Source of the DNA: Candidatus Eiseniibacteriota bacterium
GTDB taxonomy: Bacteria > Eisenbacteria > RBG-16-71-46
Length of the DNA: 64,000 bases
Direction of reading: 5' to 3'
Assembly: GCA_044222065.1 (NCBI GenBank)
Contig: JBGAOA010000014.1
Span: 1 to 64,000 of the forward strand
The notes beneath the pieces were generated by a model, which was not told where the DNA came from, did no database searches, and worked only from the letters and a program-made list of their open reading frames with translations. Positions 28,657 to 51,900 of this stretch are shown piece by piece. The first letter of the stretch is position 1. The number at the start of each line of letters is the position of its first letter. The position numbers and the translations under genes were made by a program.

Positions 28657-30882
28657 TCAGCGGGGTCGATCCCCGCCCTGCTCCGTCGCGTCCGGGGGCT
28701 CCGCCGCGCCCTTGCCGTCGGCGGCGCCGTTCGCGTCTTCGCCCTCGATCTCGGCCTTCGTCAGCTCGTCGTACCAGGCGCGGTGCTCGTGCTTCATCTG
28801 CTCTTCCGAGATGCGGCCGTGCAGCCACGTCCAGTTCATCGGGTACACCTCGGGGTTCGCGATGTTCTGGTACAGGTGCCACACCACGATCGCGAGGAAC
28901 GCGAGCCACGCCTCGTAGTAATGGACGAGCGTCGCCGCGTTGATGACCCACAGGTTCACGTGGCGCAGGGACTCGTTCTCGAACCACAGGATGAAGCCCG
29001 TGACCGTCATGACGATCGTGCCCCACACGAGCGCCCAGTACTCCGCCTTCTCGATGTAGCTGAAGCGCGCGAAGCGCGGCGGATGGCTGCGCAGGCCGGC
29101 GAGGTAGAGGCCGTTGCCGATCACGTCCCACGCGTCGGACGGCTGCGGAGCGAGGTCGCGCACGAGCGCGCGGCCGCGCTTCGTGAACAGGTAGCCGACG
29201 TGGATCACGGACACCGCCACCATCGCGATCGCCGCGATGCGGTGCAGCAGGCTGCGCCACGAGTGCCCGCCCTCGAGCCGCGCGATCCACTCGAACAGCG
29301 GGGCCTCGGGGAACTTGAGAGCGAAGCCGGTGCCGACGAGCGTGAAGAAGCTCACGGCGAGCAGCCCGTGCTGGATCCGCTCGACCGTCGTCATGCGCTC
29401 GAACCAGCGGCGCGGCCCCTCGGGGTGCGTCTCGGGCTCGAACTGCGCGCGCCAGCGAGCCCGCATCTGGCGCACGAAGTGCAGCCCCTGGTGCACCGTC
29501 ATGCCGCCGATCGTGAGCGCGATGAGCCACAGGTAGCTGATGCGCACCCAGTACGACACCGGCTCCTCGCGCCGCGCCATCACGACGTGGACGCGGCCCC
29601 GGGCGAAGCTCGCGCTGTCGCCGGGGTGGCAGCGGCCGCAGGTCGTCGCGAGGCTGTCGCGCGACACCGTCGAGCGCGGATCGCTCGACGGCAGGATCTC
29701 GTGCGCGCCGTGGCAGCTCGCGCAGTTCGCGACCACCTTGGAGCCGCCGCGCGCCGCGAGGCCGTGGAAGCTGTCCGTGTAGCTCGACAGCCGGCCGGCC
29801 GGCAGGCCGAACGTCTCGCGGATGGCCGTCGCCTCGTGGCAGCTCACGCACGTCGAGGTGACCGAGCCGGCAGCGACGGGGGAGTTCGGGTCGTGCGGCC
29901 CCGTGATGCGGTGCTCGCCGTGGCAGTCGGTGCAGACGGGCGTGCGCGTGACGCCGCGCGCGAGCGCCTGCCCGTGCACGCCGAGCGTGTACTGCTTCGC
30001 CTCGGCTTCGTGGCAGCGCCCGCAGGTCTTCGGAATGTTCGCGCGGTAGACGCTCGAGGTCGGGTCGTTCGCGCGCTTCATCCGGTGGCTCTCGTGGCAG
30101 TCGTCGCACGTCGCCGCCTTCGGGTCCTTCGAGCGACCGTGGATGCTCTGGCGGTAGAGCGCGACCGCCGACGGGATCGTGATCTTGCGGCGCTCGACGA
30201 TCCGGCGGTCCTCGTGGCAGCGCGCGCACGTGGTCGCGAGCGAGTCGTGCGAAACCGGCGACGTCGGATCCGTGTGCTTCTTCACCTGGTGCGTGCCGCC
30301 GTGGCAGTCGCGGCAGGTCGAGGCGTCGTTGTCGCCGCTCGCGAGCGCCCGGCCGTGCACCGACTCGCGGTACTGCGCGGCGACGTCGGCGTGACACGAC
30401 TCGCACGCGGCGCGCGTCATCTGCTTCGCCGGCCGCACGTCGTGCGTGCCGTGGCAGCCGCGGCAGCCGTCCTTGCCGTTCTTCTCGGGCAGCCGGTGGA
30501 CGCCCTCGGCCATGCCCTTCACGACGTCCTTGTGGCACGGCTCGCACTGGACGCGCGGCAGCCGGTCGGGATGCGGATCACGCCCGGCGCCGAGATGGCA
30601 GGCAACACACTGGAGCTTGCCGTGCACCGAGGTCGCGAGACGGCTTTCCTGCACCGACACGTTCGAGCCGTCCCGCGAGCGCGACAGCTCGTGGTTGCGG
30701 TGGCACGTCAGGCACTTCTCGGACGTGTCGTCGAGCGCGGAGGCCGTCCGGCTCGCGAGGAGCGCGCCCGCGAGCACGACGAAAGAAACGACGCGCGCGC
30801 GCCGCCACCGGGATGGACCGGCGATGCGGCGCGCCCGCGCGGATCGGAGGATCCAGGCGAAGGCCCTGGCGAAGAGCGACAT
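28657..30882 (-). CDS. 13-heme cytochrome c fused to FdnI/HyaC-type cytochrome b (CbcL-like quinol oxidoreductase)
   Basis: 13 CxxCH motifs; membrane domain with RIQH, LHR...IH, FSYIEKAEYWA and VHYYEAWLA...WH. Confidence 0.88.
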   Translation of the reverse strand: MSLFARAFAWILRSARARRIAGPSRWRRARVVSFVVLAGALLASRTASALDDTSEKCLTCHRNHELSRSRDGSNVSVQESRLATSVHGKLQCVACHLGAGRDPHPDRLPRVQCEPCHKDVVKGMAEGVHRLPEKNGKDGCRGCHGTHDVRPAKQMTRAACESCHADVAAQYRESVHGRALASGDNDASTCRDCHGGTHQVKKHTDPTSPVSHDSLATTCARCHEDRRIVERRKITIPSAVALYRQSIHGRSKDPKAATCDDCHESHRMKRANDPTSSVYRANIPKTCGRCHEAEAKQYTLGVHGQALARGVTRTPVCTDCHGEHRITGPHDPNSPVAAGSVTSTCVSCHEATAIRETFGLPAGRLSSYTDSFHGLAARGGSKVVANCASCHGAHEILPSSDPRSTVSRDSLATTCGRCHPGDSASFARGRVHVVMARREEPVSYWVRISYLWLIALTIGGMTVHQGLHFVRQMRARWRAQFEPETHPEGPRRWFERMTTVERIQHGLLAVSFFTLVGTGFALKFPEAPLFEWIARLEGGHSWRSLLHRIAAIAMVAVSVIHVGYLFTKRGRALVRDLAPQPSDAWDVIGNGLYLAGLRSHPPRFARFSYIEKAEYWALVWGTIVMTVTGFILWFENESLRHVNLWVINAATLVHYYEAWLAFLAIVVWHLYQNIANPEVYPMNWTWLHGRISEEQMKHEHRAWYDELTKAEIEGEDANGAADGKGAAEPPDATEQGGDRPR

Positions 30883-32178: not shown

Positions 32179-35064
32179 ATGGAAGGGCCCGAAGGGCGGA
32201 CGATGGTGCGGCGGGTCCTCGAGGCCGGTCGCGAGCGGTGCGCGGCGACGCGCCGGCTCGCGGCCGGCTTCTCGTTGGGCGTCGCACTCCTCGCGGCCGT
32301 GGCGTGGAACGCGGCCCCCGCGGCGGAATCGCCGGGCGGCGCGCCGTCGCGCGCGGCGGTCGTGCTGCCGGGCTCCGAAGACTGCTTCATGTGTCATCGG
32401 GACGGCGCGGGCCGCAAGCCGAACGACGAAGAGCCGCCGGTGGACGGCAACGTGCTGCGCGGCTCCGCGCACGCGGGCGTGCGCTGCGACGGCTGCCACG
32501 CGGACCTGCGCGACCAGGAGATGCCGCACGAGAAGCGGCTCAAGCCGGTCGAGTGCGGTTCGTGCCACAAGGAAGAGAAGTCGCAGCACGACGAGAGCCT
32601 GCACGGCGTGGCCGAGGCGCGCGGCGAACGGCTCGCGCCGACCTGCAAGGGATGCCACGGGACGCACAACGTGCTGCGGAAGTCGGATCCGCGCGCCGAC
32701 GTCTACACGGTCAACATCCCGTTCCTCTGCAACCGCTGCCACCGCGAAGGGTCGCAGGTGCAGAGCTTCTATCACATCCCTCAGGACTCGATCCTCAAGA
32801 ACTACTCCGAGTCCATCCACGGCGAGGGCCTGTTCAGGAAGGGCCTGCTGAACACGGCGACGTGCATCAGCTGCCACACCTCGCACCACCAGCTGCCGCA
32901 CACCGATCCGCGCTCCTCGATCGCGCGCGGCAGCGTTGCGAAGACCTGCGAGCAGTGCCACGTGCGCATCGAGCAGGTGCACGCGAAGGTCGTGCGCGGC
33001 GAGCTGTGGCAGAAGAGCCCGAACCAGGTGCCGGTGTGCGTGGACTGCCACGAACCCCACAAGGCGCGGCGCGTGTTCTACACCGGCGGACTGTCGGACC
33101 GCGACTGCATGACCTGCCACGGCAAGCGCGACCTCGCGGTGAAGCGCGCCGGCAAGACCGTGTCGCTGTTCGTGGACGCGAACACGCTCGAACACTCGCG
33201 CCACCAGAAGATCGCGTGCGCTCAGTGCCACACCGGCTCGACTGCCGGTCACGCGCGCCCGTGCGACACCGCGATCGCGAAGGTGGACTGCTCGACGTGC
33301 CACGCCGAGGTCGCGGCCGTGTGGCAGGGCAGCACGCACGGCCAGCTCGCGGCGAAGGGCAGCCCCGACGCGCCCGAGTGCCGCGACTGCCACGGCACGC
33401 ACGGCATCCGCGGCAAGAACGAGCCCGACTCGCCGACGTTCGCGAAGAACGTCCCGACGCTCTGCGGCAATTGCCACCGCACCGGCAACAAGGCCGCGGT
33501 GCGCTACAAGGGCGAGCAGAAGGACATCGTCGAGCACTACGAAGAGAGCATCCACGGCAAGGGCCTGCTGAAGAGCGGCCTCGTCGTGACGGCGACCTGC
33601 GCCGACTGCCACTCGCCGCACGGCGAGCTGCCGAGCAAGGACCCGAACTCCACGGTGAATCCCGCGAACGTCGCGACCACGTGCGCGAAGTGCCACCGCG
33701 GAATCTACGAACAGTTCGAGACGAGCATCCACGCGACGGCGGCCGGGCACACGAAGGAGAAGCTGCCGGTGTGTTCCGACTGCCACTCGGCGCACACGAT
33801 CGGACGCACGGACACCGAAGGGTTCCGGCTCACGATCATGAACCAGTGCGGCAACTGCCACCGCGACCTCGCCGAGAGCTACTTCGAGACCTATCACGGC
33901 AAGGTCTCGAAGCTCGGCTATCTCAAGACCGCGAAGTGCTACGACTGCCACGGCGCGCACGACATCCGGCGCGTCCGCGACGCCGAATCGCACCTGTCGC
34001 GCAAGAACATCGTGAAGACGTGCGAAGGCTGTCACAAGGGATCGAACATCAACTTCGCCGGCTACCTCGCGCACGGCACGCACCACGATCGCGACCGCTA
34101 CCCGGCGTTGTTCTACGCGTTCTGGGGCATGACGTCCCTGCTCGTCGTGACGTTCGTCGCCGCCGGCATCCACACGCTCGCGTGGCTGCCGCGCTCGCTC
34201 GCCTATCGCAAGCAGCTCGAGCAGTCGCACGCGCTCGAGTCGCCGACGCACGTGCGGCGCTTCCCGAAGCTCTACCGCAACCTGCACCTCATGGTGATCA
34301 CGAGCTTCCTCGCGCTCGCCGTGACCGGCATGACGCTCAAGTTCTCGCACACCGGCTGGGCGTGGGTGCTGTCGCGGCTGCTCGGCGGCTTCGAAGCCGC
34401 GGGCTTCATCCACCGCGTCGGCGCCGTCGTGACGTTCAGCTATTTCGCGATCCACATCACCGACCTGTTCCGGCGCCGCGCCGCGAGCAAGCAGTCGTGG
34501 GCGCAGTTCATCCTCGGCCCCGACGGCATGATGTTCAGCCTCACCGACCTCAAGGAAGTGATCGGCTCGGTGAAGTGGTTCCTCGGGCTCGGACCGCGAC
34601 CCGCCTACGGGCGCTGGACGTACTGGGAGAAGTTCGACTACTTCGCCGTGTTCTGGGGCGTCGCGGTGATCGGGATGTCCGGGCTGCTGCTGTGGTTCCC
34701 GACGTTCTTCACGCGCTTCGTGCCGGGCTGGGTGCTGAACGTCGCGACCATCATCCACTCGGACGAGGCGCTGCTCGCGGTGGGATTCATCTTCACGGTG
34801 CACTTCTTCAACACCCACTTCCGGCCCGAGAAGTTCCCGATGGACACGGTGATCTTCACGGGCACGATCCCGCTGGAGGAGTTCAAGCAGGATCGCCCGC
34901 GCGAGTACGAGGCGCTCGTGAAGAGCGGCGAGCTGGAGGCGCGGACCGAGCCCGCGCCCGACCCGCGCGACGTGAAGAAGTGGCGCGTGATCGGCTGGGT
35001 GGCGCTGACGATCGGCATCCTGCTCGTCATCGGCATCCTGTTCGCGGTGCTGGGCGGGCGGTAG
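32179..35064 (+). CDS. 19-heme cytochrome c fused to FdnI-type cytochrome b (CbcL-like); start could be 32203
   Basis: 19 CxxCH motifs; membrane domain with NLH, IHR...IH, GRWTYWEKFDYFAVFWG and IHSDEALLA...VHFFNTH. Confidence 0.9.
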   Translation: MEGPEGRTMVRRVLEAGRERCAATRRLAAGFSLGVALLAAVAWNAAPAAESPGGAPSRAAVVLPGSEDCFMCHRDGAGRKPNDEEPPVDGNVLRGSAHAGVRCDGCHADLRDQEMPHEKRLKPVECGSCHKEEKSQHDESLHGVAEARGERLAPTCKGCHGTHNVLRKSDPRADVYTVNIPFLCNRCHREGSQVQSFYHIPQDSILKNYSESIHGEGLFRKGLLNTATCISCHTSHHQLPHTDPRSSIARGSVAKTCEQCHVRIEQVHAKVVRGELWQKSPNQVPVCVDCHEPHKARRVFYTGGLSDRDCMTCHGKRDLAVKRAGKTVSLFVDANTLEHSRHQKIACAQCHTGSTAGHARPCDTAIAKVDCSTCHAEVAAVWQGSTHGQLAAKGSPDAPECRDCHGTHGIRGKNEPDSPTFAKNVPTLCGNCHRTGNKAAVRYKGEQKDIVEHYEESIHGKGLLKSGLVVTATCADCHSPHGELPSKDPNSTVNPANVATTCAKCHRGIYEQFETSIHATAAGHTKEKLPVCSDCHSAHTIGRTDTEGFRLTIMNQCGNCHRDLAESYFETYHGKVSKLGYLKTAKCYDCHGAHDIRRVRDAESHLSRKNIVKTCEGCHKGSNINFAGYLAHGTHHDRDRYPALFYAFWGMTSLLVVTFVAAGIHTLAWLPRSLAYRKQLEQSHALESPTHVRRFPKLYRNLHLMVITSFLALAVTGMTLKFSHTGWAWVLSRLLGGFEAAGFIHRVGAVVTFSYFAIHITDLFRRRAASKQSWAQFILGPDGMMFSLTDLKEVIGSVKWFLGLGPRPAYGRWTYWEKFDYFAVFWGVAVIGMSGLLLWFPTFFTRFVPGWVLNVATIIHSDEALLAVGFIFTVHFFNTHFRPEKFPMDTVIFTGTIPLEEFKQDRPREYEALVKSGELEARTEPAPDPRDVKKWRVIGWVALTIGILLVIGILFAVLGGR

Positions 35065-35239: not shown

Positions 35240-35677
35240 ATGAAGCGCATCGCTCTCGCCGCCGCCGTGCTCGCGCTCGCCGCGACCGCGGCGTTCGTCA
35301 CCGCCGACGACTCGCACAACCACGGCGCCGCTACGAAGACGGCCGCCACGAAGGCCGTCGCCGCCAGTCCGGCGGGCGCGGGGGCCGTCACCGGCGAGGT
35401 CGTGGACATGGGCTGCTACCTCGGCCACGGCGCGAAGGGCGAGAAGCACATCGGCTGCGCGACCAAGTGCATCGCGAACGGCATGCCGATGGGCATCCTC
35501 ACCGACGACGGCGCGCTGTACCTGGTGACGATGAACCACGAGAACGCCGACCCCTACAACCAACTCAAGAACCTCGCCGGCAAGCGCGTCACGGTGTCGG
35601 GCGAGAGGGTCGAGCGCAACGGCGTGAAGGGCATCGACGTGACGGGCGTGAAGCCGCTCGCCGCGGCGACGAAGTGA
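35240..35677 (+). CDS. Secreted hypothetical protein with Cys/His cluster
   Basis: Signal peptide; GEVVDMGCY...HIGCATKCI...GMPMGIL; RBS GAGGAGG. Confidence 0.8.
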   Translation: MKRIALAAAVLALAATAAFVTADDSHNHGAATKTAATKAVAASPAGAGAVTGEVVDMGCYLGHGAKGEKHIGCATKCIANGMPMGILTDDGALYLVTMNHENADPYNQLKNLAGKRVTVSGERVERNGVKGIDVTGVKPLAAATK

Positions 35678-35723
35678 ACGCGGGCGCACGGCGGAGCGCG
35701 CCGGCGCGCGCGCCTCGTCCGCG

Positions 35724-36527
35724 ATGAAGTTCGCGATTCGCATCGCGGCCCTGCTCGTTCTCGCGGGCGGGGCCGCGTTGTTCGTGGCGCGCCGCCCGGA
35801 CCTGCCCGCGGCCGAGCGCGGCCGGCGGCTCGCCGAGCGCACGGGTTGCTTCGCGTGCCACGGACCGGGCGGTGTGCGCGGCGCCGCGAACCACGGGCGT
35901 CTCGACCGCACCGTGCCGACGTTCGAAGGCGACGTGATGATGTACGCGAAGACGCGCGCCGAAGTGCGCGAGTGGATCGCGGACGGCGTTCCCGCGCGGC
36001 GCGCGCGAAGCGAGACGTGGCGCACCGAGCGCGAGCGCGGCGCGCTGCGGATGCCGGCGTTCGGACGCAGGCTCGGCGCGGGCGAGATCGACGACCTCGT
36101 CGAGTTCGTGCTCGCGAGCGCCGGATCACCCGCGCCCGCGGACTCGCTCGCCGCGCGCGGCCTCGCGCGCGCGGAGGCGCTCGGCTGCACCGGCTGTCAC
36201 GGCGCGGGCGGACGGTTCGCGCGCCCGAATCCCGGCTCGTTCAAGGGCGTCGTGCCGTCGTGGGACGGCGCGGACTTCGCCGACCTCGTGCGCGATCGCG
36301 CCGAGTTCGACGCGTGGGTGAAGGACGGCGTGAGCCGTCGCCTCGCGTCGAACCCGCTCGCGCGCTACTTCCTGCGCCGCGCGGCACTCCACATGCCGCG
36401 CTTCGAGCGCCACCTCGAGCCCGGCGACCTCGATGCGCTGTGGGCGTACGTGACGTGGCTGCGCTCGCCCGCAGGAAGGCTCGCGGACGCGCAGCCGATC
36501 GCGTCGAGCCCGGGGGCCTCGGAATGA
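35724..36527 (+). CDS. Membrane-anchored diheme cytochrome c
   Basis: N-terminal TM; GCFACH and GCTGCH, with MPAF and MPRF distal Met motifs. Confidence 0.85.
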   Translation: MKFAIRIAALLVLAGGAALFVARRPDLPAAERGRRLAERTGCFACHGPGGVRGAANHGRLDRTVPTFEGDVMMYAKTRAEVREWIADGVPARRARSETWRTERERGALRMPAFGRRLGAGEIDDLVEFVLASAGSPAPADSLAARGLARAEALGCTGCHGAGGRFARPNPGSFKGVVPSWDGADFADLVRDRAEFDAWVKDGVSRRLASNPLARYFLRRAALHMPRFERHLEPGDLDALWAYVTWLRSPAGRLADAQPIASSPGASE

Positions 36528-39588: not shown

Positions 39589-40161
39589 TCATCGGAAGTG
39601 CAGCGCCAGCGAGCCCATCGCGAAGAGATCGCCGCGCACGCTCGCCGTCTCACCGCCTCGAATGCCGCGGAAGCGGGTGGCGTACTCGCGCGCCTCCAAG
39701 CGCAGCGCGAGCCGGTGCGACTGAGTCTCGACGCCGAGGGCGCCGAACACCGCCGGACAGTTCTCCGCCTTCGACTCGCGATTGCCGTAGTCGAAGATCC
39801 GGACACCCGCCCCGAGCCCCGCGAACGGGCGCAGCCGCCACGTATTCGAGGGCGAGAAGGCGCTCACCTTCTCGAGACCGACATCCATCTGCCAGACGTT
39901 GACCGCGTTTCGCGACGCGAGCGCGCGATGCTCGCTGCGCGCGTACGCGAACGTCCCGCACAAATGGAGATCGCGATGCAGCTCGAGGCCGAACTGGACG
40001 CCCCCGAGCGGGGCGTCCTCGATCACGTCGCGCTGATCGCCGGTGGGGACGAGCGCCCCGACGATGGGGCGGAACTCGGGCGTGGCGGCGTGATCGGATT
40101 GCGCGAGCACGGGGCTCGCGACGAGCGAAACGAGCACGAGGGAAACGAGGACCGCACGCAT
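39589..40161 (-). CDS. Small outer-membrane beta-barrel protein (OmpA-like 8-strand)
   Basis: Signal peptide; LRPFAGLGAG, LALRLEAREY and alternating beta pattern with terminal LHF. Confidence 0.75.
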   Translation of the reverse strand: MRAVLVSLVLVSLVASPVLAQSDHAATPEFRPIVGALVPTGDQRDVIEDAPLGGVQFGLELHRDLHLCGTFAYARSEHRALASRNAVNVWQMDVGLEKVSAFSPSNTWRLRPFAGLGAGVRIFDYGNRESKAENCPAVFGALGVETQSHRLALRLEAREYATRFRGIRGGETASVRGDLFAMGSLALHFR

Positions 40162-40527: not shown

Positions 40528-42342
40528 TCAATCCACGTGGCACTCGGCGCACACGGTGCGCGCGGGGATCGGGTCCTCGTTCTGCATCGTGTGGCACTTC
40601 TTGCAGTCGAGTCCCTGTTCGTCGTGCGCGACGTGCGAGAACTCGCCGAGGCGGCTCGCGATCGTGCGCTTCTTCACGTCGCCGTGGCAGGAGGCGCACT
40701 TCGCCTCCGGCATCCCGGGCGTGTGGTGGCAGTTCGCGCATCCGCTGCGGCCGAACTTCACGACCTCGCCCGGCGGCTTCTCGGCGTGCGGCCGGTGGCA
40801 CGCGCCGCACTCGAGCTTCGCCTCGCCGAGGTGCGAGCCGTGCGAGAACGCGTGGCCCTCGAACGCGCCCGTGCGCCGGTCGATGCCCATGTGACAGCTC
40901 AGGCACGCGGCCGAGTTCGGCGCGATGACCTTCCACGGCCGTCCGAGCGCCGCCATGCCCTTCGACTGGCGCGCCGCGTTCATCTGGTTGAACGCCTTCT
41001 CGAGCAGCGCGTACGAGTAGCTCACGTTGTGCACGCCGTGGCCGCGCGCAACGAGGCGGAAGTTCCAGAGCGCGTCCTCGAACGGCTTCGGCGGATCGGC
41101 GCCCATCGCGCCGACGGTCGCATCGAGCTGGCGGCGCAGCCCCTCGACGCGGTCGCCGATGCTCGCCTTCCACGTCGCGAACATGCCCTTGTACCTCGGG
41201 CCGTGGCACGCCATGCACGACACGTCGCTCGCCGTCGCGTTGTGCGGCCCCGCTTCGTCGGAAGCGTTCGCGGCCGGCGAGAGGCGCACGTCGTGGCAGC
41301 CCTCGCACGTCACGCCCGCGAGGAACATCGGCGACGGGCCGTCGGGCACGCCGCGTCCGCCGCGGCCCGAGTAGAGCTGCTGCTGCGGCGAGTGCCCGCT
41401 GCCGTGGCAGCGCTCGCAGTCGCCGGCGGCCTCGGCGATCGCCGGCACCGGCGGCTTCTGCCCGTGCTCGATCGTGAGGTGGCAGTCCACGCAGTCCACC
41501 TTGTGCTCGGTGACGTGCATCTGGTGCAGGAAATCGGGCTCGTTGATCTTCTCGAGCCGGTCGGGCTGGTTGTGACAGCTCTGGCAGCGCTCCTTCGGCA
41601 CCGCGCCGTCGCCGCTCACGACCGCGGCGTGGCAGCCGCGGCAGTCCATGCCGCTCTCGCGCACCTGCTTGTGGTTGAACGGCGCGCCGCTCGCCGTCTG
41701 CACGCGGTCCGGAATCGTGTGGCACGTCAGGCAGCGGCCCGTGCCGGCGTTCGGCGCCTGGCCCTTGAAGTGGCAGATCGCGCACGTGCTCGTCGTCACC
41801 GCGATGTGCGTGCCCTGTACGATCTGCGAGTGGCACGACGTGCAGCGCAACTTCATGCCGCGGCGCGTCTCGGTGAGGTGCGGGCGGTGATCGAACGTCA
41901 CCATGTGGTACTGCACCTTGCCTTCGATCAGGCGGCGGTCGTGGCAGCGCAGGCACGCGGCGTCGTCCACCTCGGCCCACGGCTTCGTGCCGTAGGTGGC
42001 CGTGAAGTACTTCACGACCATGGACATGGCCTCGTACTTCTTGCGGATCTCGGCGCCGACGCCGGGCGAGATGTGGCACTCGACGCACGCGATCTTCGAA
42101 TGCGCCGACACCTTCCACGACTCGTAGTACGGCTTCATGATGTGGCACGTCCCGCAGAACTGCGGCGTAGACGACACCTGGATGAAGCCGAACAGCGCGA
42201 CGAACCCGAGCGCGAGGGCGAGTCCGGCGGCGAACGTGACGATGCGAGTGGCGTTCGGCGCGAGCCGTCCGCCGCTGACGCGCGTCACCCACTTCGCGAG
42301 CGCCGAGTCGGGGCCGAGGCCGAAGCCCGGCAGTCGCGCCAC
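40528..42342 (-). CDS. Membrane-anchored 18-heme cytochrome c with NapC/NirT-like N-terminal domain
   Basis: Single TM followed by SSTPQFCGTCHIMKPYYESW..S.H..IACVECH (NapC/NirT signature); 18 CxxCH motifs in total. Confidence 0.9.
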   Translation of the reverse strand: MARLPGFGLGPDSALAKWVTRVSGGRLAPNATRIVTFAAGLALALGFVALFGFIQVSSTPQFCGTCHIMKPYYESWKVSAHSKIACVECHISPGVGAEIRKKYEAMSMVVKYFTATYGTKPWAEVDDAACLRCHDRRLIEGKVQYHMVTFDHRPHLTETRRGMKLRCTSCHSQIVQGTHIAVTTSTCAICHFKGQAPNAGTGRCLTCHTIPDRVQTASGAPFNHKQVRESGMDCRGCHAAVVSGDGAVPKERCQSCHNQPDRLEKINEPDFLHQMHVTEHKVDCVDCHLTIEHGQKPPVPAIAEAAGDCERCHGSGHSPQQQLYSGRGGRGVPDGPSPMFLAGVTCEGCHDVRLSPAANASDEAGPHNATASDVSCMACHGPRYKGMFATWKASIGDRVEGLRRQLDATVGAMGADPPKPFEDALWNFRLVARGHGVHNVSYSYALLEKAFNQMNAARQSKGMAALGRPWKVIAPNSAACLSCHMGIDRRTGAFEGHAFSHGSHLGEAKLECGACHRPHAEKPPGEVVKFGRSGCANCHHTPGMPEAKCASCHGDVKKRTIASRLGEFSHVAHDEQGLDCKKCHTMQNEDPIPARTVCAECHVD

Positions 42343-42343
42343 G

Positions 42344-43585
42344 TCAGGCGCCCTTCGTGCTCCGCTCCCGGAATCGCCGCAGCACGAGGAGCGTGAGGCC
42401 GACGTAGAACCAGAACAGCACGAGACCGACTTTCCGCCAGACGAGATCGTCGAGCTTGTGCTTCAACTCGCTGCGCACCTCGTGAGCGACCGACTTCGCG
42501 CGCGACGTGAAGCTCGCGACGGTGGTCGAGTCGAGCGAGTGCGCGGCGGGCAGCGCCTCGCGCAGCAACGTGCGGCCTTCTTCGACGCGCGACAGGTAGT
42601 CCTCGGTGCGGATCGGCACCGCGTCGGCCCTGGCCACGATCGCGGACGCCTGGTCGAGTTCGGCGGCGGCGTCCTTGTAGCTGTCGAACAGGCGCGCGCC
42701 GAGCCGCGTGAGCGGGGACGTCGCGCCGTGGCACTTCGCGCACGCCGACTCGAGCTTCTCGGGCGTCACGGTCGCGATGTCGTGGTGGCCGTGGCACCAC
42801 GCGCACTCGGAGTAGCCGGCCTTCGCGAGGTACGTGTTGTGGCCGCCCGCCATGAAGTAGCGGCGTTCCGCCGTGTGGCAGCGGCCGCAGACCTTGCTGA
42901 CGTCACCGACCGCGGGGGGCGAGGCGCCGTGGACGCCGTGGCAGCTCACGCACGTCGGCGCGCGGCGGTTGCCGTTGTCGAACAGTTCGTGCGCGTGGAC
43001 GCTCTTCGCGTAGTCGGTCGCGGCGCGCGCGGCCTTCGTGTCGCCGAGCTTCTTCGGATCGCCGTGGCACTCGCCGCAGGTGCGCGGGATGTTCGTGACG
43101 TACGTGCGGCTCGCGGGATCGTCCGCCGCGCGGATGTCGTGCGCGCCGTGACAGCTCGAGCACACGGCGACCTTCGTGTCGCCCTGCGCGAGCTTCTTCC
43201 CGTGGTCGGACGTCTGGTAGAGCGCGTACTGGTCCACCGGGAGGTCGTAGGGCCGCATCTGCGCTTCGTCGGAGTGGCAGGAGGCGCAGATCTTCGGCTC
43301 CTCGGCGCGCGTGATGCGGCCGACGAAGCCGCGGTGCGCTTCGCCCTGGTCGAGCGAGTGGTCGTTGCCGCCGTGGCACGAGACGCACTTCACGCCCTCG
43401 CGCGCGTGCGCGCTCGCGTCGTGCTGGACGCGCTCGGCCGGATGGCACGCGCCGCAGGTGCCGGCGTTCGGCGACAGCGGGCCGGGATCGCGCGGCGCCG
43501 CCGCGGCGCTCGCCGACGACGACGCGGCGGCGATCCACGCCGCGCATGCGAGCGCTGCCGCGAGTCGGATCGTGCGCGCGCTCAT
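42344..43585 (-). CDS. Nonaheme cytochrome c with C-terminal membrane anchor
   Basis: Signal peptide, 9 CxxCH motifs, helical region and TM (VGLVLFWFYVGLTLLVL); ATGA overlap with cytochrome b. Confidence 0.87.
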   Translation of the reverse strand: MSARTIRLAAALACAAWIAAASSSASAAAAPRDPGPLSPNAGTCGACHPAERVQHDASAHAREGVKCVSCHGGNDHSLDQGEAHRGFVGRITRAEEPKICASCHSDEAQMRPYDLPVDQYALYQTSDHGKKLAQGDTKVAVCSSCHGAHDIRAADDPASRTYVTNIPRTCGECHGDPKKLGDTKAARAATDYAKSVHAHELFDNGNRRAPTCVSCHGVHGASPPAVGDVSKVCGRCHTAERRYFMAGGHNTYLAKAGYSECAWCHGHHDIATVTPEKLESACAKCHGATSPLTRLGARLFDSYKDAAAELDQASAIVARADAVPIRTEDYLSRVEEGRTLLREALPAAHSLDSTTVASFTSRAKSVAHEVRSELKHKLDDLVWRKVGLVLFWFYVGLTLLVLRRFRERSTKGA

Positions 43586-44688
43586 CGGACGAACGCTCCC
43601 GCGATCGTGAGCGCGAGCCACACGCCGAACAGCGCGACGCCGCCGAGCTTCACGCGCTTCTCGTTCGCTTCGCCGCCGCGCGCGGCCCACACCGGCAGCA
43701 GCAGCACGGCGAACGCGATCACGAGCAGCACGAGTCCGATGATCCAGTCCGGCACCGGGAGCTTCTCGTACAGAAGCCAGGGCGCGAGCATGTACCACGG
43801 CGGCCGCACGCCTTCGGGCGTCGCGTACGGGTCCGCCGCCATCGAGAAGCGGAACGGCGCGAGCACCGCGGCGCTGACGAGCCCGGCGAACACGAGCAGC
43901 ATGAGGTTCGCGAGCGAGTAGTAGTGCTCGCGGTAGGTCACGGTCGGAGCGCCGGGATTCGAGACGCTCGACAGCCCGACGCGGCGGATCGTCGCGTAGG
44001 TCGCCCAGATCAGCACCGCGAACGCGACCGGGAACGTGATGATGTGGAACACGTAGAAACGGATCAGCACGTTCTCGGTGATGACGCGGCCGCCGAGCAG
44101 GAACGACAGGAAGCCGCCGACCACCGGCAGCGAGAACACGATCTCCATGCCGCGCACCGCCCGCCAGTAGGTGCCCGAATCCCACACGAGCAGCTGGCCC
44201 GTGAAGTCGGCCTGCAGCGCGAGCCACGCCATTGCGACCGCGCTCCACCACAGGATCTCGCGCGGCGCGCGCCACAGCCCGTCCCAGAAGAGGCGCACGA
44301 GCCGGACCGCCACGACGACGACGAGTGCGACGGCGCCCCACGCGTGGAGCTGGTGGATGAACCAGCCGAACGGCAGGTCGCGCACGATCGTGCGCGTACT
44401 CTCGAACGCGACCGTCGGCGACGGCACGTAGTAGAAGGCGAGCAGCAGCCCGGTCACGACTTCGATCGCGAACAGCACGACCGTGAGCGGCGCGAGCACC
44501 ATGGGCCAGCGATGGAAGTGCGGGATGCGGCGCGCGGCGAGCGCGTTCATCTCCTCGCGCAGAGGCTTCGACGCGTCCACCGGCGTGTACACCATGAGGA
44601 AGTGCGAGACGAACGCGAACGCCTCGGTGAGGTGGAGGCGCTGCTCGAGCCAGTCGAGCACGCCGCGAGTCGGCCGGGTCGCGCTCAT
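43582..44688 (-). CDS. Cytochrome b of bc-type complex (b6 + subunit IV fused), atypical His ligands
   Basis: TGLLLAFYYVPS...AFES, GWFI.QLHAWGA, FTGQLL.WD..YW, RFY.FH and P....PPWY (PEWY-like) motifs. Confidence 0.9.
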   Translation of the reverse strand: MSATRPTRGVLDWLEQRLHLTEAFAFVSHFLMVYTPVDASKPLREEMNALAARRIPHFHRWPMVLAPLTVVLFAIEVVTGLLLAFYYVPSPTVAFESTRTIVRDLPFGWFIHQLHAWGAVALVVVVAVRLVRLFWDGLWRAPREILWWSAVAMAWLALQADFTGQLLVWDSGTYWRAVRGMEIVFSLPVVGGFLSFLLGGRVITENVLIRFYVFHIITFPVAFAVLIWATYATIRRVGLSSVSNPGAPTVTYREHYYSLANLMLLVFAGLVSAAVLAPFRFSMAADPYATPEGVRPPWYMLAPWLLYEKLPVPDWIIGLVLLVIAFAVLLLPVWAARGGEANEKRVKLGGVALFGVWLALTIAGAFVR

Positions 44689-45158
44689 AGCCGGACGTAC
44701 ACCTCGCCCGCCCGCACCGCGACCTCGTAGGTCTTGAGCGGCTTCGGGGGCGGTCCCGAGATGACGTTGCCGCCGAGGTCGAAGCGACCGTCGTGGCACG
44801 GGCACACGATGATGCGGCGCTCGCGATCGAAGCCGAGGATGCAGCGCACGTGCGTGCACACGGCGCTCATCGCGACGACCTTCGTCGCGTCGGTGCGGAT
44901 CACGAAGAACGGCGTCGAGCCGTGGCGCACGAACTTCGCCTCGCCGACGCGCAGCGCCTCGAGCGGTCCGACGGGAACGATGCGCTCCGCCAGGTGGCGC
45001 TCGCGTTCGGGGGCGCGCAGGTACGAGAGCGTCGCGCCGAGGCCTCCGAGCGCCCACAGGCCGAGCAGCGCCTTGCTCATGTAGCCGAGAAAACCGCGCC
45101 GCGTGGTGGCCGAGTCGAGGACTCCGGCGTCACCCGCGGCGGGATCGTGCTCCGCCAT
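44685..45158 (-). CDS. Rieske 2Fe-2S protein of bc-type complex
   Basis: Tat motif TRRGFL plus TM; CTHVRC and CPCHDG boxes; GPPPKPL. Confidence 0.93.
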   Translation of the reverse strand: MAEHDPAAGDAGVLDSATTRRGFLGYMSKALLGLWALGGLGATLSYLRAPERERHLAERIVPVGPLEALRVGEAKFVRHGSTPFFVIRTDATKVVAMSAVCTHVRCILGFDRERRIIVCPCHDGRFDLGGNVISGPPPKPLKTYEVAVRAGEVYVRL

Positions 45159-46106: not shown

Positions 46107-47492
46107 ATGTGGAAGTTCGCTTCGGGCGCGCGCGTGTGCGCGCTCGTCCTCGTGGCCGCGGCGCCGGCGCTCGCCCGCGCCGATGCGCCGTCCCGCGAAA
46201 CGCTGCCCGACCGCATCGTGTCCGTCGATTCGCTGTGGGTGCGCGGGAACGGCGACGTCACGTCGTCGCCCCCCGCGGGCGCCGAGCTGTCGCTCGACTG
46301 GGTCGAGCGGACCGTGCTCGAGCGCAACCCGACGCTCGCCGCAGCACGCGCCGCGGCGTCCGCCGCGGAGGCGGCCGCGCGCGCCGCCCGCGGGCTCGAA
46401 CCGCTGCGCGTCGCGGGCCTGGTGGCGCCGCGCACGCTCGGCGGCTACGACGCCGAGCTGCCGGGCGGCATGGGCACGATGCGCGCCGAGGCGGCGTGGA
46501 GCGTTTCCGCGTCTCAGCGGCTGCCGCTCTTCGGACGCCGCGGCGCGGCGGGCAGCGCCGCGCGCGGCGAGGCGCTCGCCGCGGGCGAAGCGCGCGAAGC
46601 GACGCGGCTCGATCTGCTCTACGAGGCGCGCGCGGCGTTCTACGAGGACTGGCGTCTCGCGCGCGAGCTCGAGACCAATCGCGAGCTGGTCACGCTCGTG
46701 AGCGCGACCCGCTCGGCGGCGCTCGCGCGCTACGGCGCGGGGCTCGCGCCGCAGGCCGATCCGCTGCGCGCCGAGGTCGAGCTCGCGCGGCTCGACCACG
46801 ATCGCGCGATGATCGAGCGCGACCAGCGCATCGTGCGCGCGCGGCTCGCCGCGCTGCTCCACGCGCCGCCGCGCGCCGAGCTGCCGCCGGCGCCGGCGTT
46901 CCTTCCGCATCTCGCCATCACCGCCGGAGAGGACGTCGAGCGCGCGCCCGAGGTTCGCGCGGCGGGCGCAATGCTCGACGCCTCGCGCGCGATGCTCGCG
47001 CTCGCCGGGCGCGAACGCCTGCCGGAGCTCGAACTCGAGGCGCGCTACGATCGCTTCATGGCCGACCCCGAGATGCGCTTCGCCGCGGGGCTCTCGATGG
47101 AGCTGCCGACGTGGCTCGGCGGCGCGGCTGCGAACGAGCGCTCGGCGCGGGCGCTCGTCGCGCGCGCCGAGGCCGAACGCGCGGCCGCCGTCGCCGAGTC
47201 CGCGAGGCGCAGGACCGAGGCGCGGGCGCGTCTCGAGGACGCGCGGCACGAACTCGCGATCCTCGTCGAGCGCGTCGTTCCGGCGAGCGAAGCGGCGCAG
47301 CGCGCGGCGCTGGCCGCCTACGAGGCGGGCCGGCTCGAGTTCGGCGCGCTGATCGCCACGACACGGGAGTGGGCCGAGGCGCGTCTCGACCGGTCGCGCG
47401 CCGAGGCGGACGAACGGCTCGCGGAGGCCGCGGTGGCGCGGGCGTCGTCGAACGACGCGCGGCCCGTGCGGCTCGAAGAGGAGGAGCGATGA
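46107..47492 (+). CDS. TolC-family outer-membrane efflux protein (CusC/CzcC-like)
   Basis: LERNPTLAAA, SQRLPLFG and AYEAGRLEF motifs; RBS AAGGAG. Confidence 0.88.
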   Translation: MWKFASGARVCALVLVAAAPALARADAPSRETLPDRIVSVDSLWVRGNGDVTSSPPAGAELSLDWVERTVLERNPTLAAARAAASAAEAAARAARGLEPLRVAGLVAPRTLGGYDAELPGGMGTMRAEAAWSVSASQRLPLFGRRGAAGSAARGEALAAGEAREATRLDLLYEARAAFYEDWRLARELETNRELVTLVSATRSAALARYGAGLAPQADPLRAEVELARLDHDRAMIERDQRIVRARLAALLHAPPRAELPPAPAFLPHLAITAGEDVERAPEVRAAGAMLDASRAMLALAGRERLPELELEARYDRFMADPEMRFAAGLSMELPTWLGGAAANERSARALVARAEAERAAAVAESARRRTEARARLEDARHELAILVERVVPASEAAQRAALAAYEAGRLEFGALIATTREWAEARLDRSRAEADERLAEAAVARASSNDARPVRLEEEER

Positions 47493-48931
47493 TCCGGAAC
47501 GTGAAGTCGGGATTGCTCGCCGCGTTCGCGGCGTTCGCGCTCGCGGGCTGCGGCGAGCGTGCGCCTTTAGATCTCGCGCTCCAGCGGGCCGGGTCGCTCG
47601 CCGTCGGCATCGCGACCACGCCCGATCCGCCCGCGACCGGGAGCAACGCGCTCACGGTCGTCGTGCGGGATGCGTCCGGGAGTCCGGTGCGCGGCGCCGC
47701 GATCGAGGCGGTCGTGTTCATGCCCGCGATGGGCGCGATGCCGTACATGGAGAGCCGCGGCACCGTTACCGAACGCGGCCCCGGCCTCTACCGCGTCCGC
47801 TACGGCCTCTCGATGCAGGGCGACTGGGACGTGACGCTGCGCGTCACGCCGCCGGGCGGCGCGCCCTCGCGGTCGGCGTGGCGGCTCAGCACGAACCGCA
47901 AGGGCGTCGCGTTCGTGAGCGCCGACGCGCCCGCGGGCGCGGGCGCGGACACGGCGACGGCGGCGTCCGACTCGGGCGTCGTCGTGCTCGACGCCTCGCG
48001 CCGCCAGGCGCTCGGCATCCGGCTCGGCACCGTCGAATCGCGCGTGCTCGCCGTGCCGATCCGCGCCTCGGGGCGGATCGCGTGGGACGAGACGCGCCGC
48101 AGCGACGTCACGCTCCAGTTCGGCGGCTTCGTGCGCGAGCTGCACGCCGACTTCGTCGGCAAGCCGGTCTCGAAGGGCGCCGTGCTGTTCACCGTGAACA
48201 GTCCCGACCTGCTCGCGGCGGAGCACGAGTACCTCGACGCGCTCACGGCGCAGGGTTCGTCGCTCGCGGTCGCCTCTCGGCGCAAGCTCGAGCGCTGGGG
48301 CATCGGCGCGGACGTGCTCGACGACCTCGCGCGCACGCACCTCGCGCGCGAGGCGCTGCCCGTCACGGCGCCGTCGTCGGGCGTGATCGTCGAGAAGAAC
48401 GTCGTGCAGGGAAGCGCGTTCCAGCCCGGCGAAGTGCTGTTCCGCATCGCCCCCCTCGATCCGGTGTGGGTCGTCGCGGCGCTGTTCCCGGCGGACCTGC
48501 CGCTCGTGCGCGTCGGACAGAGCGCGCGCCTGCGCGATCCCTACGGCGGCGGCGCCGAGCGCACGGGCCGCATCGCGTTCGTCGCGCCCTCGGTGGACGG
48601 GATGACGCGCACCGGCGAGGTGCGCATCGAGGTCTCGAATCGCGACGGCGCGCTGCGCCCCGGTGCGTTCGTGGACGTCGAGCTCGACGTGCCGCTCGGC
48701 AAGCGCGTCGCGGTGCCCGAGGGCGCGGTGCTTCCCACCGGCGAGCGCACGCTCGTGTTCGTGGACCTCGGCGGCGGACGGCTCGCGCCGCGCGACGTCG
48801 TGCTCGGCGCGCGCGCCGGCGACTGGTACGAGGTGCGCTCGGGACTCGTTCCGGGCGAGGCGGTCGTGACGTCGGGCAACTTCCTCGTCGCGGCCGAGAG
48901 CCGGCTGCGCTCGGCGACGGGCAAGTGGTGA
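47489..48931 (+). CDS. cusB: CusB-like RND periplasmic adaptor with N-terminal YtkA/FixH-like Met-rich domain
   Basis: Lipobox LAGC; MPAMGAMPYM; SPDLLAAEHEYL, APSSGVI and VVTSGNFL.AAES motifs. Confidence 0.85.
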   Translation: MIRNVKSGLLAAFAAFALAGCGERAPLDLALQRAGSLAVGIATTPDPPATGSNALTVVVRDASGSPVRGAAIEAVVFMPAMGAMPYMESRGTVTERGPGLYRVRYGLSMQGDWDVTLRVTPPGGAPSRSAWRLSTNRKGVAFVSADAPAGAGADTATAASDSGVVVLDASRRQALGIRLGTVESRVLAVPIRASGRIAWDETRRSDVTLQFGGFVRELHADFVGKPVSKGAVLFTVNSPDLLAAEHEYLDALTAQGSSLAVASRRKLERWGIGADVLDDLARTHLAREALPVTAPSSGVIVEKNVVQGSAFQPGEVLFRIAPLDPVWVVAALFPADLPLVRVGQSARLRDPYGGGAERTGRIAFVAPSVDGMTRTGEVRIEVSNRDGALRPGAFVDVELDVPLGKRVAVPEGAVLPTGERTLVFVDLGGGRLAPRDVVLGARAGDWYEVRSGLVPGEAVVTSGNFLVAAESRLRSATGKW

Positions 48932-48938
48932 GGCGGCG

Positions 48939-51900
48939 ATGATCGAACGGCTCATCGGCTGGTGCGCGACGCGGCGCGGCGTCACGCTCGCGATCGTGCT
49001 CGCGGCGCTCGGCGCGGGGTTGTTCGCGCTCACGCGCACGCCGCTCGACGCGATTCCGGATCTTTCGGACACGCAGGTGATCGTCGCGACCGAGTGGCCG
49101 GGGCGCAGTCCCGGGCTCGTCGAGGACCAGGTCACGTATCCGCTCGTCTCGACGCTGCGCGCCGCGCCCGGCGTGCGCTACGTGCGCGGCTTCTCGATGT
49201 TCGGCGATTCGTTCGTGTACGTCGTGTTCGAAGACGGCGTGGACCCCTACTGGGCGAGGAGCCGCGTCGTCGAGATCCTCGCCGGGATCCGCGACCGGCT
49301 GCCGTCCGGCGTCACGCCGCGGCTCGGGCCCGACGCGACCGGCGTCGGCTGGGTGTTCGAATACGCGCTCGTGGACTCGAGCGGCAAGAACGACCTCGCC
49401 GACCTGCGCGCGTTCCAGGACTGGACCCTGCGCTACTGGCTCCAGAGCGTGGACGGCGTCGCGGAGGTCGCGCCGATCGGCGGCTTCGTGCGCGAGTACC
49501 AGGTGGACCTCGACCCCGCGCGGCTGCAGGCCTACGGCGTGGCGATCGACGAGGTCGCGGGCGCGATCCGGCGCGCGAGCGCCGAAACCGGCGGCGGCGC
49601 GCTCGAGATCGCCGAGCACGAGTTCGTCGTGCGCGGCCGCGGCTACGTGAAGCGCGCCTCCGATCTCGAGGCGACGCCGGTGCGCGCGAGCGACGCGGGC
49701 GTTCCCGTGCGCCTCGGCGACCTCGGCCGCGTCGTGCTGGGCCCCGAGCCGCGACGCGGCATCGCCGAGCTGAACGGCGAGGGCGAGGTGGTCGGCGGCA
49801 TCGTCGTGATGCGCCACGGCGAGAACGCGCTGCGCGTGATCCGCGACGTGAAGCACCGCCTCGCCGAGGTGCGGGGCGCGCTGCCCGAAGGCGTACGCCT
49901 CGAGGTCACGTACGACCGCTCGATCCTGATCGAGCGCGCGAACGAGCACCTGCGCCGGGTGCTGATCGAGGAAATGCTGATCGTGAGCGCCGTCATCGTG
50001 CTGTTCCTGTGGCACGTGCCGAGCGCGCTCGTCCCCGTGCTGTCGCTGCCGGCCGCGGTCCTGCTCGCGTTCGTGCCGATGTTCGGCCAGAAGCTCGGCG
50101 CGAACATCATGTCGCTCGGCGGCATCGCGATCGCGATCGGTGCGATGGTGGACGCCTCGATCATCATGATCGAGAACGTGCACAAGCGGCTCGAAGCGTG
50201 GCAGCTCGCGGGCCGTCCGGGCGCTCGCGATGCGGTCGTGATCGGCGCGCTGCGCGAGGTCGGGCGCCCGGTGTTCTTCGCGCTGCTCGTCATCACGGTG
50301 TCGTTCCTGCCGATCTTCACGCTCGAGGGCGTCGAGGGCCGGCTGTTCCGGCCGCTCGCGTTCACGAAGACGTACTCGATGGCGTTCGCGGCGCTGCTGG
50401 CCGTGACGCTCACGCCCGCGCTCACGATGTGGTTCGTGCGCGGCCGGATCCGCCCCGAATCCGAGCAGCCGATCGCGCGCGCGATCCAGCGCGCGTACGT
50501 CCCGGTGCTGCGCTTCGCGGTGCGCCGACGGCGCTGGGTCGTCGCCGGCGCGGTGCTGCTCGTGCTCTCGACCGTTCCCGTGTGGCTCTCGCTCGGGCGC
50601 GAGTTCATGCCGCCGCTCAACGAGGGCACGATCCTCTTCATGCCGACGGCGCCGCCCGGCATGTCCGAGACCGAATCGGCTTCGGTGCTGCAGAACATGG
50701 ACCGCCGGATCCGCGAGGTGCCCGAGGTCGAGAGCGTGTTCGGCAAGATCGGCCGCGCGCGCACGGCGACCGATCCCGCGCCCCCGGGCATGGTCGAGAC
50801 GACGATCCAGCTCAAGCCCGAGCGCGAGTGGCGCAAAGGCGTGACGTGGGAGGGGATCGTGTCCGAACTCGACCGGCGCGTGCGATTCCCCGGCATGCCG
50901 AACCTGTGGTGGATGCCGGTGCAGACGCGCAACGAGATGCTCTCGACCGGCGTGCGGAGCCCCGTCGCCGTGAAGGTGTACGGGGACGACGTCGCCGGGA
51001 TCGAGCGCGTCGCGATCGGCGTCGAGGCCGCGCTGCGCGGCGTGCGCGGCACGCGCAGCGCCTACGCGGAGCGACTCACGGGCGGCCTGTACGTGGACGT
51101 GACGCCGCGCCGCGCCGAGGCCGCGCGCTACGGGCTCGCGGCCGGCGACGTGCTGGACGTCGTCGAGGCATCGGTCGGCGGACTGCCGGTGGCCGAGACG
51201 ATCGAAGGCCGGCGGCGCGTCGGCATACGCGTGCGCTACGCGCGCGAGCGCCGCGACGACGTCGAATCGCTCAAGCGCGTGCTCGTGCCGACGCGCTCGG
51301 GCGCGCAGGTGCCGCTCTCCGAGATCGCCGACATCGCGTTCGAGCCGGGGCCGCCGATGCTCCAGAGCGAGGACGGGCAGTTGTTCGCGCTCGTGTCGGT
51401 GGACGTGGACGGCCGCTCGCTCGGCGACTACGTGCGCGACGCGCGCCGCGTCGTGTCCGAGCGCGTGCGGCTGCCGGCGGGCGTGCGGCTCGCGTGGGCG
51501 GGCCAGTTCGAGCATCTCGAGCGCGCGGAGAAGCGGCTCGCGTTCGTCGTGCCGCTCACGCTGCTGCTCGTCGCGACGCTGCTGTGGATCAACCTGCGCT
51601 CCAAGGCCGAGACCGCGCTCGTGCTGCTCGCGGTGCCGTTCTCGCTCGTCGGCGCGGTGTGGCTCGTGTGGCTCCTGAACTACAACCTGAGCGTGGCCGT
51701 GTGGGTCGGGATGATCGCGCTCGCCGGGCTCGACGCCGAGACCGGCATCCTGATGCTGCTGTACCTCAACCTCGCGCATCGCGAGCGGGTCGAGCGCGGC
51801 GCGCTGCGCGACCGTCGCGACCTGATGGAGGCGATCGTCGAGGGCGCCGCGCACCGCATCCGCCCGAAGCACATGACCGTGCTCGCGATCCTGTTCGGTT

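Follow-up and report, generated by a model that had tools for sequence, protein, structure and literature searches.

A Rieske-associated cytochrome b without the heme bH histidines, conserved in Eisenbacteria and their relatives, as a candidate menaquinol oxidase operating without a Q-cycle

The 64,000-nucleotide window analysed here (positions 1 to 64,000 of contig JBGAOA010000014.1, assembly GCA_044222065.1, Candidatus Eiseniibacteriota bacterium) carries on its minus strand four overlapping or abutting genes which encode, in this order, a Rieske protein, a cytochrome b, a 9-heme cytochrome c and a NapC-like 18-heme cytochrome c. The second of these, the cytochrome b, lacks both of heme bH's ligating histidines and is the subject of this study. 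Its open reading frame, which the initial annotation had called intact, indeed specifies 368 amino acids without an internal stop. The protein matched Pfam PF00033 above the cut-off and PF00032 with 24.5 vs 20.7 bits, and the single chain contains both the b6 and the subunit IV parts, which differs from the split arrangement of b6f complexes. Its AlphaFold2 model (predicted local distance difference test score, pLDDT, 86.9) aligned over nearly its full length with cytochrome b structures (Foldseek template-modelling score, TM, ∼0.7; VIA Z 29, root-mean-square deviation 4.0 Å over 342 residues), and a search of the ESM Atlas with the protein recovered cytochrome b clusters only.

When aligned with solved cytochromes b6, all four heme-ligand positions were matched without gaps. 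The two histidines of heme bL are kept (His115 in helix B and His215 in helix D) and the two positions belonging to heme bH are occupied by Arg129 and Thr230, so that the four histidines typical of canonical bc1 and b6f complexes are not all present. The initial annotation had read a bL histidine with Arg at +14 in helix B, and a bL histidine with Ala and Thr at +14 and +15 in helix D; the alignment bears out both readings and places the second ligand position at Thr230 rather than at Ala229, because b6-type cytochromes have a spacing of +15. As the bL histidines are kept and both bH histidines are gone, the protein is predicted to bind, likely, heme bL only, and the Q-cycle has very probably been lost within it.

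Both bH codons are spanned by contigs of two other public DNA runs (X11, record 7; X3, records 29 and 30) with no difference listed, and since contigs from independent runs agree at both codons an assembly error was dismissed. Chance was likewise dismissed because, in the wider family, 127 of the best 150 representatives retain all four histidines, yet Arg is fixed in the clade to which this protein belongs. The ratio of non-synonymous to synonymous substitution rates (dN/dS) of the clade cytochrome b was 0.06-0.27 in 10 close pairs, vs 0.09-0.15 in three pairs of canonical cytochromes b; one distant pair involving the query gave 0.42. An explanation by sequencing error or gene decay, to which the in-frame TAG in the clade cytochrome b of one relative (G003:C19:36662-37744; either an error or a recent break) might point, is therefore refuted to near certainty by these ratios, by the concordance of independent contigs and by the fixation of the substitutions across phyla.

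A homolog search returned 259 matches, of which those listed form 120 rows, namely the query and 119 proteins of 54-62% identity, three of them named Candidatus Eisenbacteria or Eiseniibacteriota. Among these rows Arg129 is invariant (120/120) and position 230 is occupied by Thr in 118 and by Ser in two. The initial annotation had asked whether homologs in the same type of operon share both substitutions under purifying selection, and this is the case; a retention of the histidines in close homologs, which it had considered a sign of sequence error or decay, was not seen in any of the 119 listed homologs. A scan of GTDB genomes yielded 58 loci with 74 cytochrome b rows (two pairs of rows derive from one genome each), with Arg129 in 57 and His at this helix-B position in 17. 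All 33 close clade rows, mostly from Eisenbacteria, carry Thr230, whereas the 24 distant ones, mostly from Acidobacteriota with single labels of Gemmatimonadota, Clostridia and Patescibacteria, show His in 18, Asn in four, Gly in one and Ser in one. Conservation in this set is biased at positions 112, 113, 115, 117 and 161-165, which the scan patterns covered; positions 129, 132, 179, 230, 235 and 297 lay outside the patterns. The best 150 representatives of an unfiltered profile search (6995 proteins; some of the 150 are fragments and P0127 is apparently chimeric) included, besides the 127 with all four histidines, 17 with Arg129, 11 of which also have the helix-D His. In a quick tree of 85 rows (midpoint-rooted, short row L109 omitted), all Arg rows fell on one side of a branch with a Shimodaira-Hasegawa-like approximate likelihood-ratio test (SH-aLRT) value of 100, and the Thr rows formed one group inside them. 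Five different codons encode Arg129 across the clade. Position 230 varies between Thr, His, Asn, Gly and Ser and is therefore unlike a required ligand.

As the Arg is shared by relatives, acidobacterial and other, most of which still have the helix-D His, the order of events was probably stepwise, with the change of the helix-B His to Arg defining the clade and the helix-D His being relaxed later. The 'paired loss' proposed by the initial annotation thus holds with respect to selection and not with respect to pairing. Both substitutions are real, conserved and selected, and as judged by its defining ligands the clade is a Rieske/cytochrome b variant outside the canonical Q-cycle group. Other cytochromes b lack bH ligands in different ways: in P0145 and P0149 both bH positions are taken by Phe and Leu (P0145 also carries PPWY and a long insert at its N-terminus), the helix-B position is Tyr in P0258 and the helix-D position is Gln in P0193.

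The surroundings of the missing bH ligands on the membrane's N side are also altered. The packing Gly of helix C is Ala in 118 of the 120 listed rows; the 17 Arg129 representatives have Ala (11), Gly (five) or Asn (one) at this position, and 127 of 128 His-bearing rows have Gly. The Cys of the CxGG motif that holds heme ci was sought and found in none of the 120 listed rows, the stretch reading VLAP here and mostly VLGL in homologs. At the start of helix E, the equivalent of the quinone-reducing (Qi) site, an acidic residue is present in 13/57 clade rows vs 16/16 canonical rows and is absent from this protein, as judged in a five-residue window whose register is uncertain by one residue. Furthermore, the distance from Trp13 to the helix-A Gly is 53 residues in all 55 clade rows that span it and 31-33 residues in 17/17 canonical rows; this fixed insertion, helical in the model, may plug the Qi or ci space. 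The bL site, comprising His115, His215 and the glycines Gly80 and Gly164, is invariant where present in 58 clade rows. Tyr228, tried as an alternative heme ligand, was ruled out as this protein has Trp there.

On the opposite side, the quinol-oxidizing (Qo) site is rebuilt rather than lost, with changes of Val to Arg, Tyr to Arg, Glu to Pro and Arg to His. Arg179 in helix cd1 is present in 58/58 clade rows, in 120/120 listed homolog rows and in 16/16 covered representatives, and 120 of 128 His-bearing rows have Val or Ile there. The initial annotation stated that the Qo motif survives as PPWY, which is correct for the PxWY frame; the Glu is lost, the second residue being Pro in 119 of 120 listed rows in place of the acidic residue of PEWY or PDWY, and the surrounding site is rebuilt. 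By itself PPWY is no bar to catalysis, because motifs without Glu occur in working complexes. In Rhodobacter, R94, Y147 and E295 belong to the Qo proton path according to PMC10583091; their motif-matched equivalents are His112, position 165 (mostly Arg in the clade, Gln in this protein) and Pro297. Since the four-histidine relative P0136 already has His112, Gln159 and Arg179 and does not have the insertion, the Qo change probably preceded Arg129 and the insertion.

The adjacent Rieske gene carries both cluster-binding boxes, the first reading CTHx[R/H]C in 45 clade rows. Gly and Phe stand at the potential-tuning Ser and Tyr positions in 43/43 parsed clade rows, and the Tyr is kept in 13 of 15 Rieske rows from outside the clade. 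Loss of this Ser and Tyr drops the potential by ∼130 and ∼65 mV, respectively (PMC12954380), and the clade Rieske protein is predicted to be of low potential, below ∼+100 mV.

The order of the four genes is kept in all loci with enough flank (Rieske 54/54, 9-heme 51/51, 18-heme 48/48), and their products likely form a four-subunit complex. The 18-heme protein matched PF03264 above the cut-off and NrfH with an E-value of 3.8e-07, and has the N-terminal membrane helix and the CxxCHxM motif of NapC/NirT proteins, Cys63, Cys66, His67 and Met69 being invariant in 30 rows. Lys102 is kept, and Val109 occupies the NrfH Asp position in 30/30 rows, so that only the first member of the NrfH quinol-site pair, Lys82/Asp89, is present; the printed NrfH alignment stops one residue short of the Asp. 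We dropped the Asp-to-Val change as evidence specific to this operon, for the Val is clear in four of five distant homologs from genomes without the clade cytochrome b and the position is deleted in the fifth.

Co-occurrence was examined in 125 genomes of the phylum with a completeness of at least 90%, the clade gene being assigned by score (E <= 6.3e-53); as kin are not independent, the counts are descriptive and not tests. The clade cytochrome b is present in 40 of these genomes. The 18-heme protein was found in 40/40 carriers and in seven non-carriers, where it also has the Val and in five of them lies beside CbcL-like genes. A canonical paralogous module, consisting of a Rieske protein, a four-histidine PEWY cytochrome b and a 9-heme cytochrome, occurs within ∼9 kb in 10 of 20 fully flanked loci, and in several Acidobacteria it is part of the same gene run as the clade module. 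In one relative (G003) it lies between the 13-heme gene and a gene which we take to be ribonucleotide-reductase-like, a place from which it is absent in the window.

The genome itself, which is 94% complete, gave a single cytochrome b match. It encodes futalosine-pathway menaquinone genes, two heme-copper oxidases, a bd oxidase, a clade II NosZ and an operon whose gene order and matches fit alternative complex III, as we would name it. Because this operon and the oxidases are present, the cell need not rely on the clade complex for a proton-pumping step.

Table 1. Features of the window, with residues of the cytochrome b numbered along its 368-residue chain
Feature	Position	Strand	Remarks
Cytochrome b, fused b6 + subunit IV type, without both bH ligands	43582..44688	-	Open reading frame, Pfam, alignments, model, structure matches
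His115, heme bL ligand in helix B	44344..44346	-	Kept
Arg129, at helix-B bH His position	44302..44304	-	Fixed in clade
His215, heme bL ligand in helix D	44044..44046	-	Kept
Thr230, at helix-D bH His position	43999..44001	-	b6 H202 position
Arg179, helix cd1 of Qo site	44152..44154	-	Canonical: Val or Ile; clade-fixed
PPWY Qo motif, residues 296-299	43792..43803	-	Pro for Glu
Clade-specific insertion of ∼22 residues, N-terminal to helix A	44566..44631	-	Place approximate; modelled helix at residues 20-31
Rieske [2Fe-2S] protein	44685..45158	-	CTHVRC / CPCHDGRF; no Ser or Tyr at potential-tuning positions; overlaps cytochrome b start
9-heme cytochrome c	42344..43585	-	C-terminal membrane anchor; overlaps cytochrome b stop
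18-heme cytochrome c	40528..42342	-	Membrane helix at the N-terminus; NapC/NirT (NrfH-like) domain, which retains CxxCHxM and Lys
13-heme cytochrome fused to formate-dehydrogenase-gamma-like b-heme domain	28657..30777	-	Associated, not obligatory
19-heme cytochrome, same kind of membrane domain	32203..35064	+	Associated
DmsE/MtrA-family decaheme cytochrome	54640-55536	-	Above NCBIfam cut-off; associated
MtrB/PioB porin	52507-54630	-	Just below NCBIfam cut-off; associated
c-type cytochrome cluster	27765-36527		Di-heme 27765-28580; 5-heme 31383-32051; di-heme 35724-36527; plus 13-heme and 19-heme

Without bH, the electron on bL could return to the Qo site, leave on the periplasmic side, cross to the other half of a dimer or pass to another N-side cofactor. 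We tentatively favour the first route, although with somewhat less than even confidence: the complex would be a bL-only menaquinol oxidase without a Q-cycle, in which both electrons leave through the Rieske protein and what is a short circuit in other enzymes is the normal cycle. This agrees with the initial annotation, which had suggested that both electrons perhaps pass to the multiheme subunits. The first quinol would give one electron to the Rieske cluster and park the other on bL; the second would give one electron to the re-oxidized Rieske cluster, whereupon bL would hand its electron back to the semiquinone. The net result would be that two electrons exit through the Rieske protein into the 9-heme/18-heme chain and two protons are released outside, with zero charge moved across the membrane. 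The rebuilt Qo site would abolish the gating that slows this short circuit in canonical enzymes. The purpose may be to drain the menaquinol pool to low-potential periplasmic or extracellular acceptors which lie so near menaquinol in potential that the driving force would not sustain a Q-cycle. Such a 'low gear' would parallel the potential-dependent quinol oxidases of Geobacter. Ping-pong return to Qo was preferred because it needs nothing new: the Chlamydomonas b6 mutant H202Q, whose b6f complex is without bH and ci, grows at ∼5% turnover, and a ping-pong between bL and the semiquinone has been proposed for it (PMC3112540). The bL short circuit, which releases two protons outside and takes up none inside, has been called very hard to suppress (PMC7908018).

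Several observations weigh against this reading. In the engineered knockouts the short-circuit route is slow, at 4-20 per s (PMC3112540), and a faster turnover brought about by the Qo changes of the clade is a hypothesis. Helix-A Gly66 and Arg132, which flank bH in canonical proteins, are retained in 114 and 120 of the 120 listed rows, respectively, the Thr230 subclade of Eisenbacteria conserves His29 and His255 (115 and 116 of 120 listed rows), and the helix-D His persists in 18 of the 24 distant members; the retained helix-D His and the two conserved histidines leave room for some cofactor on the N side. The low potential predicted for the Rieske protein has a counterexample in anammox, where a Rieske protein without the Tyr is nonetheless of high potential (PMC12954380). 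A shortened Rieske hinge, which would have been a sign of a fixed head, was sought and not seen. Finally, an MtrB-like porin is present in 21/40 carriers vs 14/85 other genomes.

The constant presence of the 18-heme subunit would be accounted for by a second, doubtful explanation, namely a bifurcation on the periplasmic side in which quinol is still split at Qo, the bL electron passes to the first heme, at membrane level, of the NapC-like 18-heme protein as a low-potential wire and the Rieske electron passes to the 9-heme protein. In the loci read, no 18-heme gene belongs to the canonical paralogous module, whereas every carrier of the clade cytochrome b has the 18-heme protein, and a NapC domain that combines CxxCHxM and Lys with Val where NrfH has Asp is more readily understood as an acceptor than as a site for quinol. 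An extension of this scheme would be an outsourced Q-cycle, in which the low-potential electron could in some genomes re-enter the membrane through the 13-heme/di-heme-b neighbour, as orthologs of this neighbour (E <= 1e-70) occur in 34/40 carriers vs 1/85 others and the gene lies directly upstream of the module in 15/52 loci. However, bL is buried, docking of the 18-heme protein to the cytochrome b is hypothetical, and the occurrence of the Val-bearing NapC-like family in genomes without the clade cytochrome b argues against a specificity of this family for bL. In addition, four carriers (G109, G111, G112 and G114) gave neither a 13-heme nor a CbcL-type match, and an obligatory outsourced Q-cycle is ruled out by the co-occurrence data.

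An operation in reverse, by which electrons from an MtrA/MtrB-type conduit or from periplasmic donors would travel through the multihemes and the Rieske protein and, with bL as a buffer, reduce menaquinone on the periplasmic side, is improbable. Qo motifs without Glu are found in Acidithiobacillus ferrooxidans, which has PPWY, and in a Geobacter complex with APWY for which backward operation has been proposed (PMC4122944), the predicted low potential of the Rieske protein would suit this direction, and MtrB lies directly upstream in 5/52 loci. PMC4122944 nevertheless attributes PPWY to adaptation to low pH, and the yeast mutant E272P is still a quinol oxidizer according to the same source; moreover, protons drawn from outside would cost proton-motive force, and the sequence gives no direction.

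That electrons still cross the membrane by way of an altered N-side cofactor, either a heme that is displaced or has a single ligand, or a quinone bound by Arg129, Arg132, Arg235 and Thr or His at position 230, is also quite unlikely. Retention of Gly66, Arg132 and Arg235, the small polar residue or His found almost always at position 230 and the conservation of His29 and His255 in the Thr230 subclade (30/58 rows have His29, Thr230 and His255 together) would agree with it. However, most members of the His230 group have Ser or Asn at position 29. Both His29 and His255 are absent from several rows, and the clade has lost the helix-C Gly and, apparently, most of its Qi acids. Arg would, in addition, be a very unusual axial heme ligand.

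A heterodimer with a canonical four-histidine cytochrome b, in which the bL electron would cross to the bL and bH of the partner and the Q-cycle would be kept, is highly improbable. Transfer from bL to bL is catalytically competent in cross-inactivated bc1 (PMC4330944) and the canonical paralog is often nearby, but it comes with its own Rieske and 9-heme genes, and a second cytochrome b was not found at E <= 1e-17 in 12/40 carriers, among them the present genome and G118 (five contigs), which rules out an obligatory heterodimer. We consider it just as far-fetched that no quinone chemistry takes place, with Arg179, Asp161 and Gln159 closing the Qo pocket and the protein serving as a scaffold or relay for the Rieske protein and the multihemes: charged residues do stand at the Val, Gly/Ala and Tyr positions around Qo, but Pro296, Trp298, Tyr299, Trp175 and the bL site are conserved, and His112, Gln159 and Arg179 are compatible with an intact heme chain because four-histidine P0136 has all three.

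With canonical bc1 and b6f complexes, including the four-histidine PEWY paralog, the clade shares the fold, the Rieske partner, the bL site, PxWY and the b6-type histidine spacing; it differs in the absence of bH ligands and ci Cys, in the apparently mostly lost Qi acid, in the N-side insertion and rebuilt Qo site, and in having two multiheme subunits where those complexes have c1 or f. The engineered knockouts Chlamydomonas b6 H202Q (QiKO) and Rhodobacter H212N resemble it in that a bH ligand is lost and bL kept, H202 being the position of Thr230, and QiKO still turns over without bH and ci (PMC3112540). A natural loss of a bH ligand, from which the authors infer that the heme is absent, is described for Pyrobaculum cytochromes b (PMC4122944); these are archaeal, only their fourth His is lost, and neither an Arg substitution nor a multiheme operon is described in the available text of that paper. 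In cyanobacterial subfamily K the helix-2 heme His is replaced, and its function and heme number are called obscure (PMC5600118); this is a short b6-type protein with His changed to Glu or Gln and without the helix-1 Gly, whereas the clade protein is long, with Arg129 and, mostly, Gly66. In Geobacter, several inner-membrane quinol oxidases per cell are selected by acceptor potential, and ImcH, CbcL, CbcBA, Cbc3-6 and the GSU2930-2937 cluster are, like the proposed enzyme, routes from menaquinol to the periplasm with multihemes; the likeness is one of description, and no Rieske/cytochrome b without bH is described there in the accessible parts of the sources (PMC13591261, PMC2825233). A large cytochrome b survey discarded sequences without the four histidines before analysis (PMC4122944). 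The view of the initial annotation that the system is a candidate for an undescribed one stands insofar as a mainly open-access literature search, which did not extend to survey supplements tabulating ligand states, found no account of the clade; weaker natural precedents do exist in Pyrobaculum and subfamily K, neither of which is a match.

The four heme histidines of cytochrome b have been treated as invariant, and here a clade spanning several phyla has replaced them under selection, so that a Rieske/cytochrome b complex likely works without a Q-cycle as its normal mode. The clade is a natural experiment on the open question of how the Qo site suppresses short circuits and, if it operates as a bL-only oxidase, the natural counterpart of the engineered bH knockouts. 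Should the Qo and Rieske changes accelerate turnover, these residues would mark the gate. For Eisenbacteria and Acidobacteria from sludge, soil and sediment, the complex would be a new site in the inner membrane at which electrons enter multiheme chains. If, on the other hand, bifurcation were true, a single enzyme would power the export of low-potential electrons, or would supply them to a separate di-heme-b protein by which an outsourced Q-cycle is completed.

Public runs containing most of the operon came chiefly from activated sludge, wastewater and bioreactors; in RNA runs, parts of it occur only as contigs, which is no demonstration of transcription. A promoter and terminator scan gave nothing exceeding chance, and a search with TIGR04519 gave no match, the controls likewise remaining without match. 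Downstream of the operon and on the same strand lies a gene for a secreted 190-residue protein (39589-40161) which matched no NCBIfam family and, in its longer reading, no Pfam family, and which was not seen as a conserved neighbour. The 13-heme and 19-heme neighbours combine multiheme parts with formate-dehydrogenase-gamma-like domains that score below the NCBIfam cut-off, and the architecture of the 19-heme protein is presumably CbcL-like. The decaheme/porin pair is separated from the Rieske/cytochrome b operon by a heavy-metal-efflux-like RND cluster (46107-52441), and an octaheme cytochrome at 871-2160 gave a weak hydrazine dehydrogenase match (HAO-like fold family), far under the cut-off.

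Additional multiheme genes were observed outside the window. Very large cytochromes with 42, 34 and 20 CxxCH motifs are encoded at G000:C89:47283-50444 and G000:C85:17939-22421, and a relative of the 42-heme protein is found in L077, directly upstream of the Rieske gene, and in L121, upstream of both the 13-heme and the Rieske genes. In seven loci (L052, L053, L060, L062, L065, L067 and L068), a trio of 8-heme (7-heme and fused in L068), iron-sulfur and NrfD-like genes, absent from the window, follows the 18-heme gene. In two further stretches (L122:6182-11343 and L123:1373-7742, from G086 and G091), the gene for a four-histidine PEWF cytochrome b is succeeded by those for a HAO-like octaheme cytochrome, a large protein resembling oxidoreductases and a tetraheme cytochrome, an arrangement that recalls anammox-type Rieske/cytochrome b operons.

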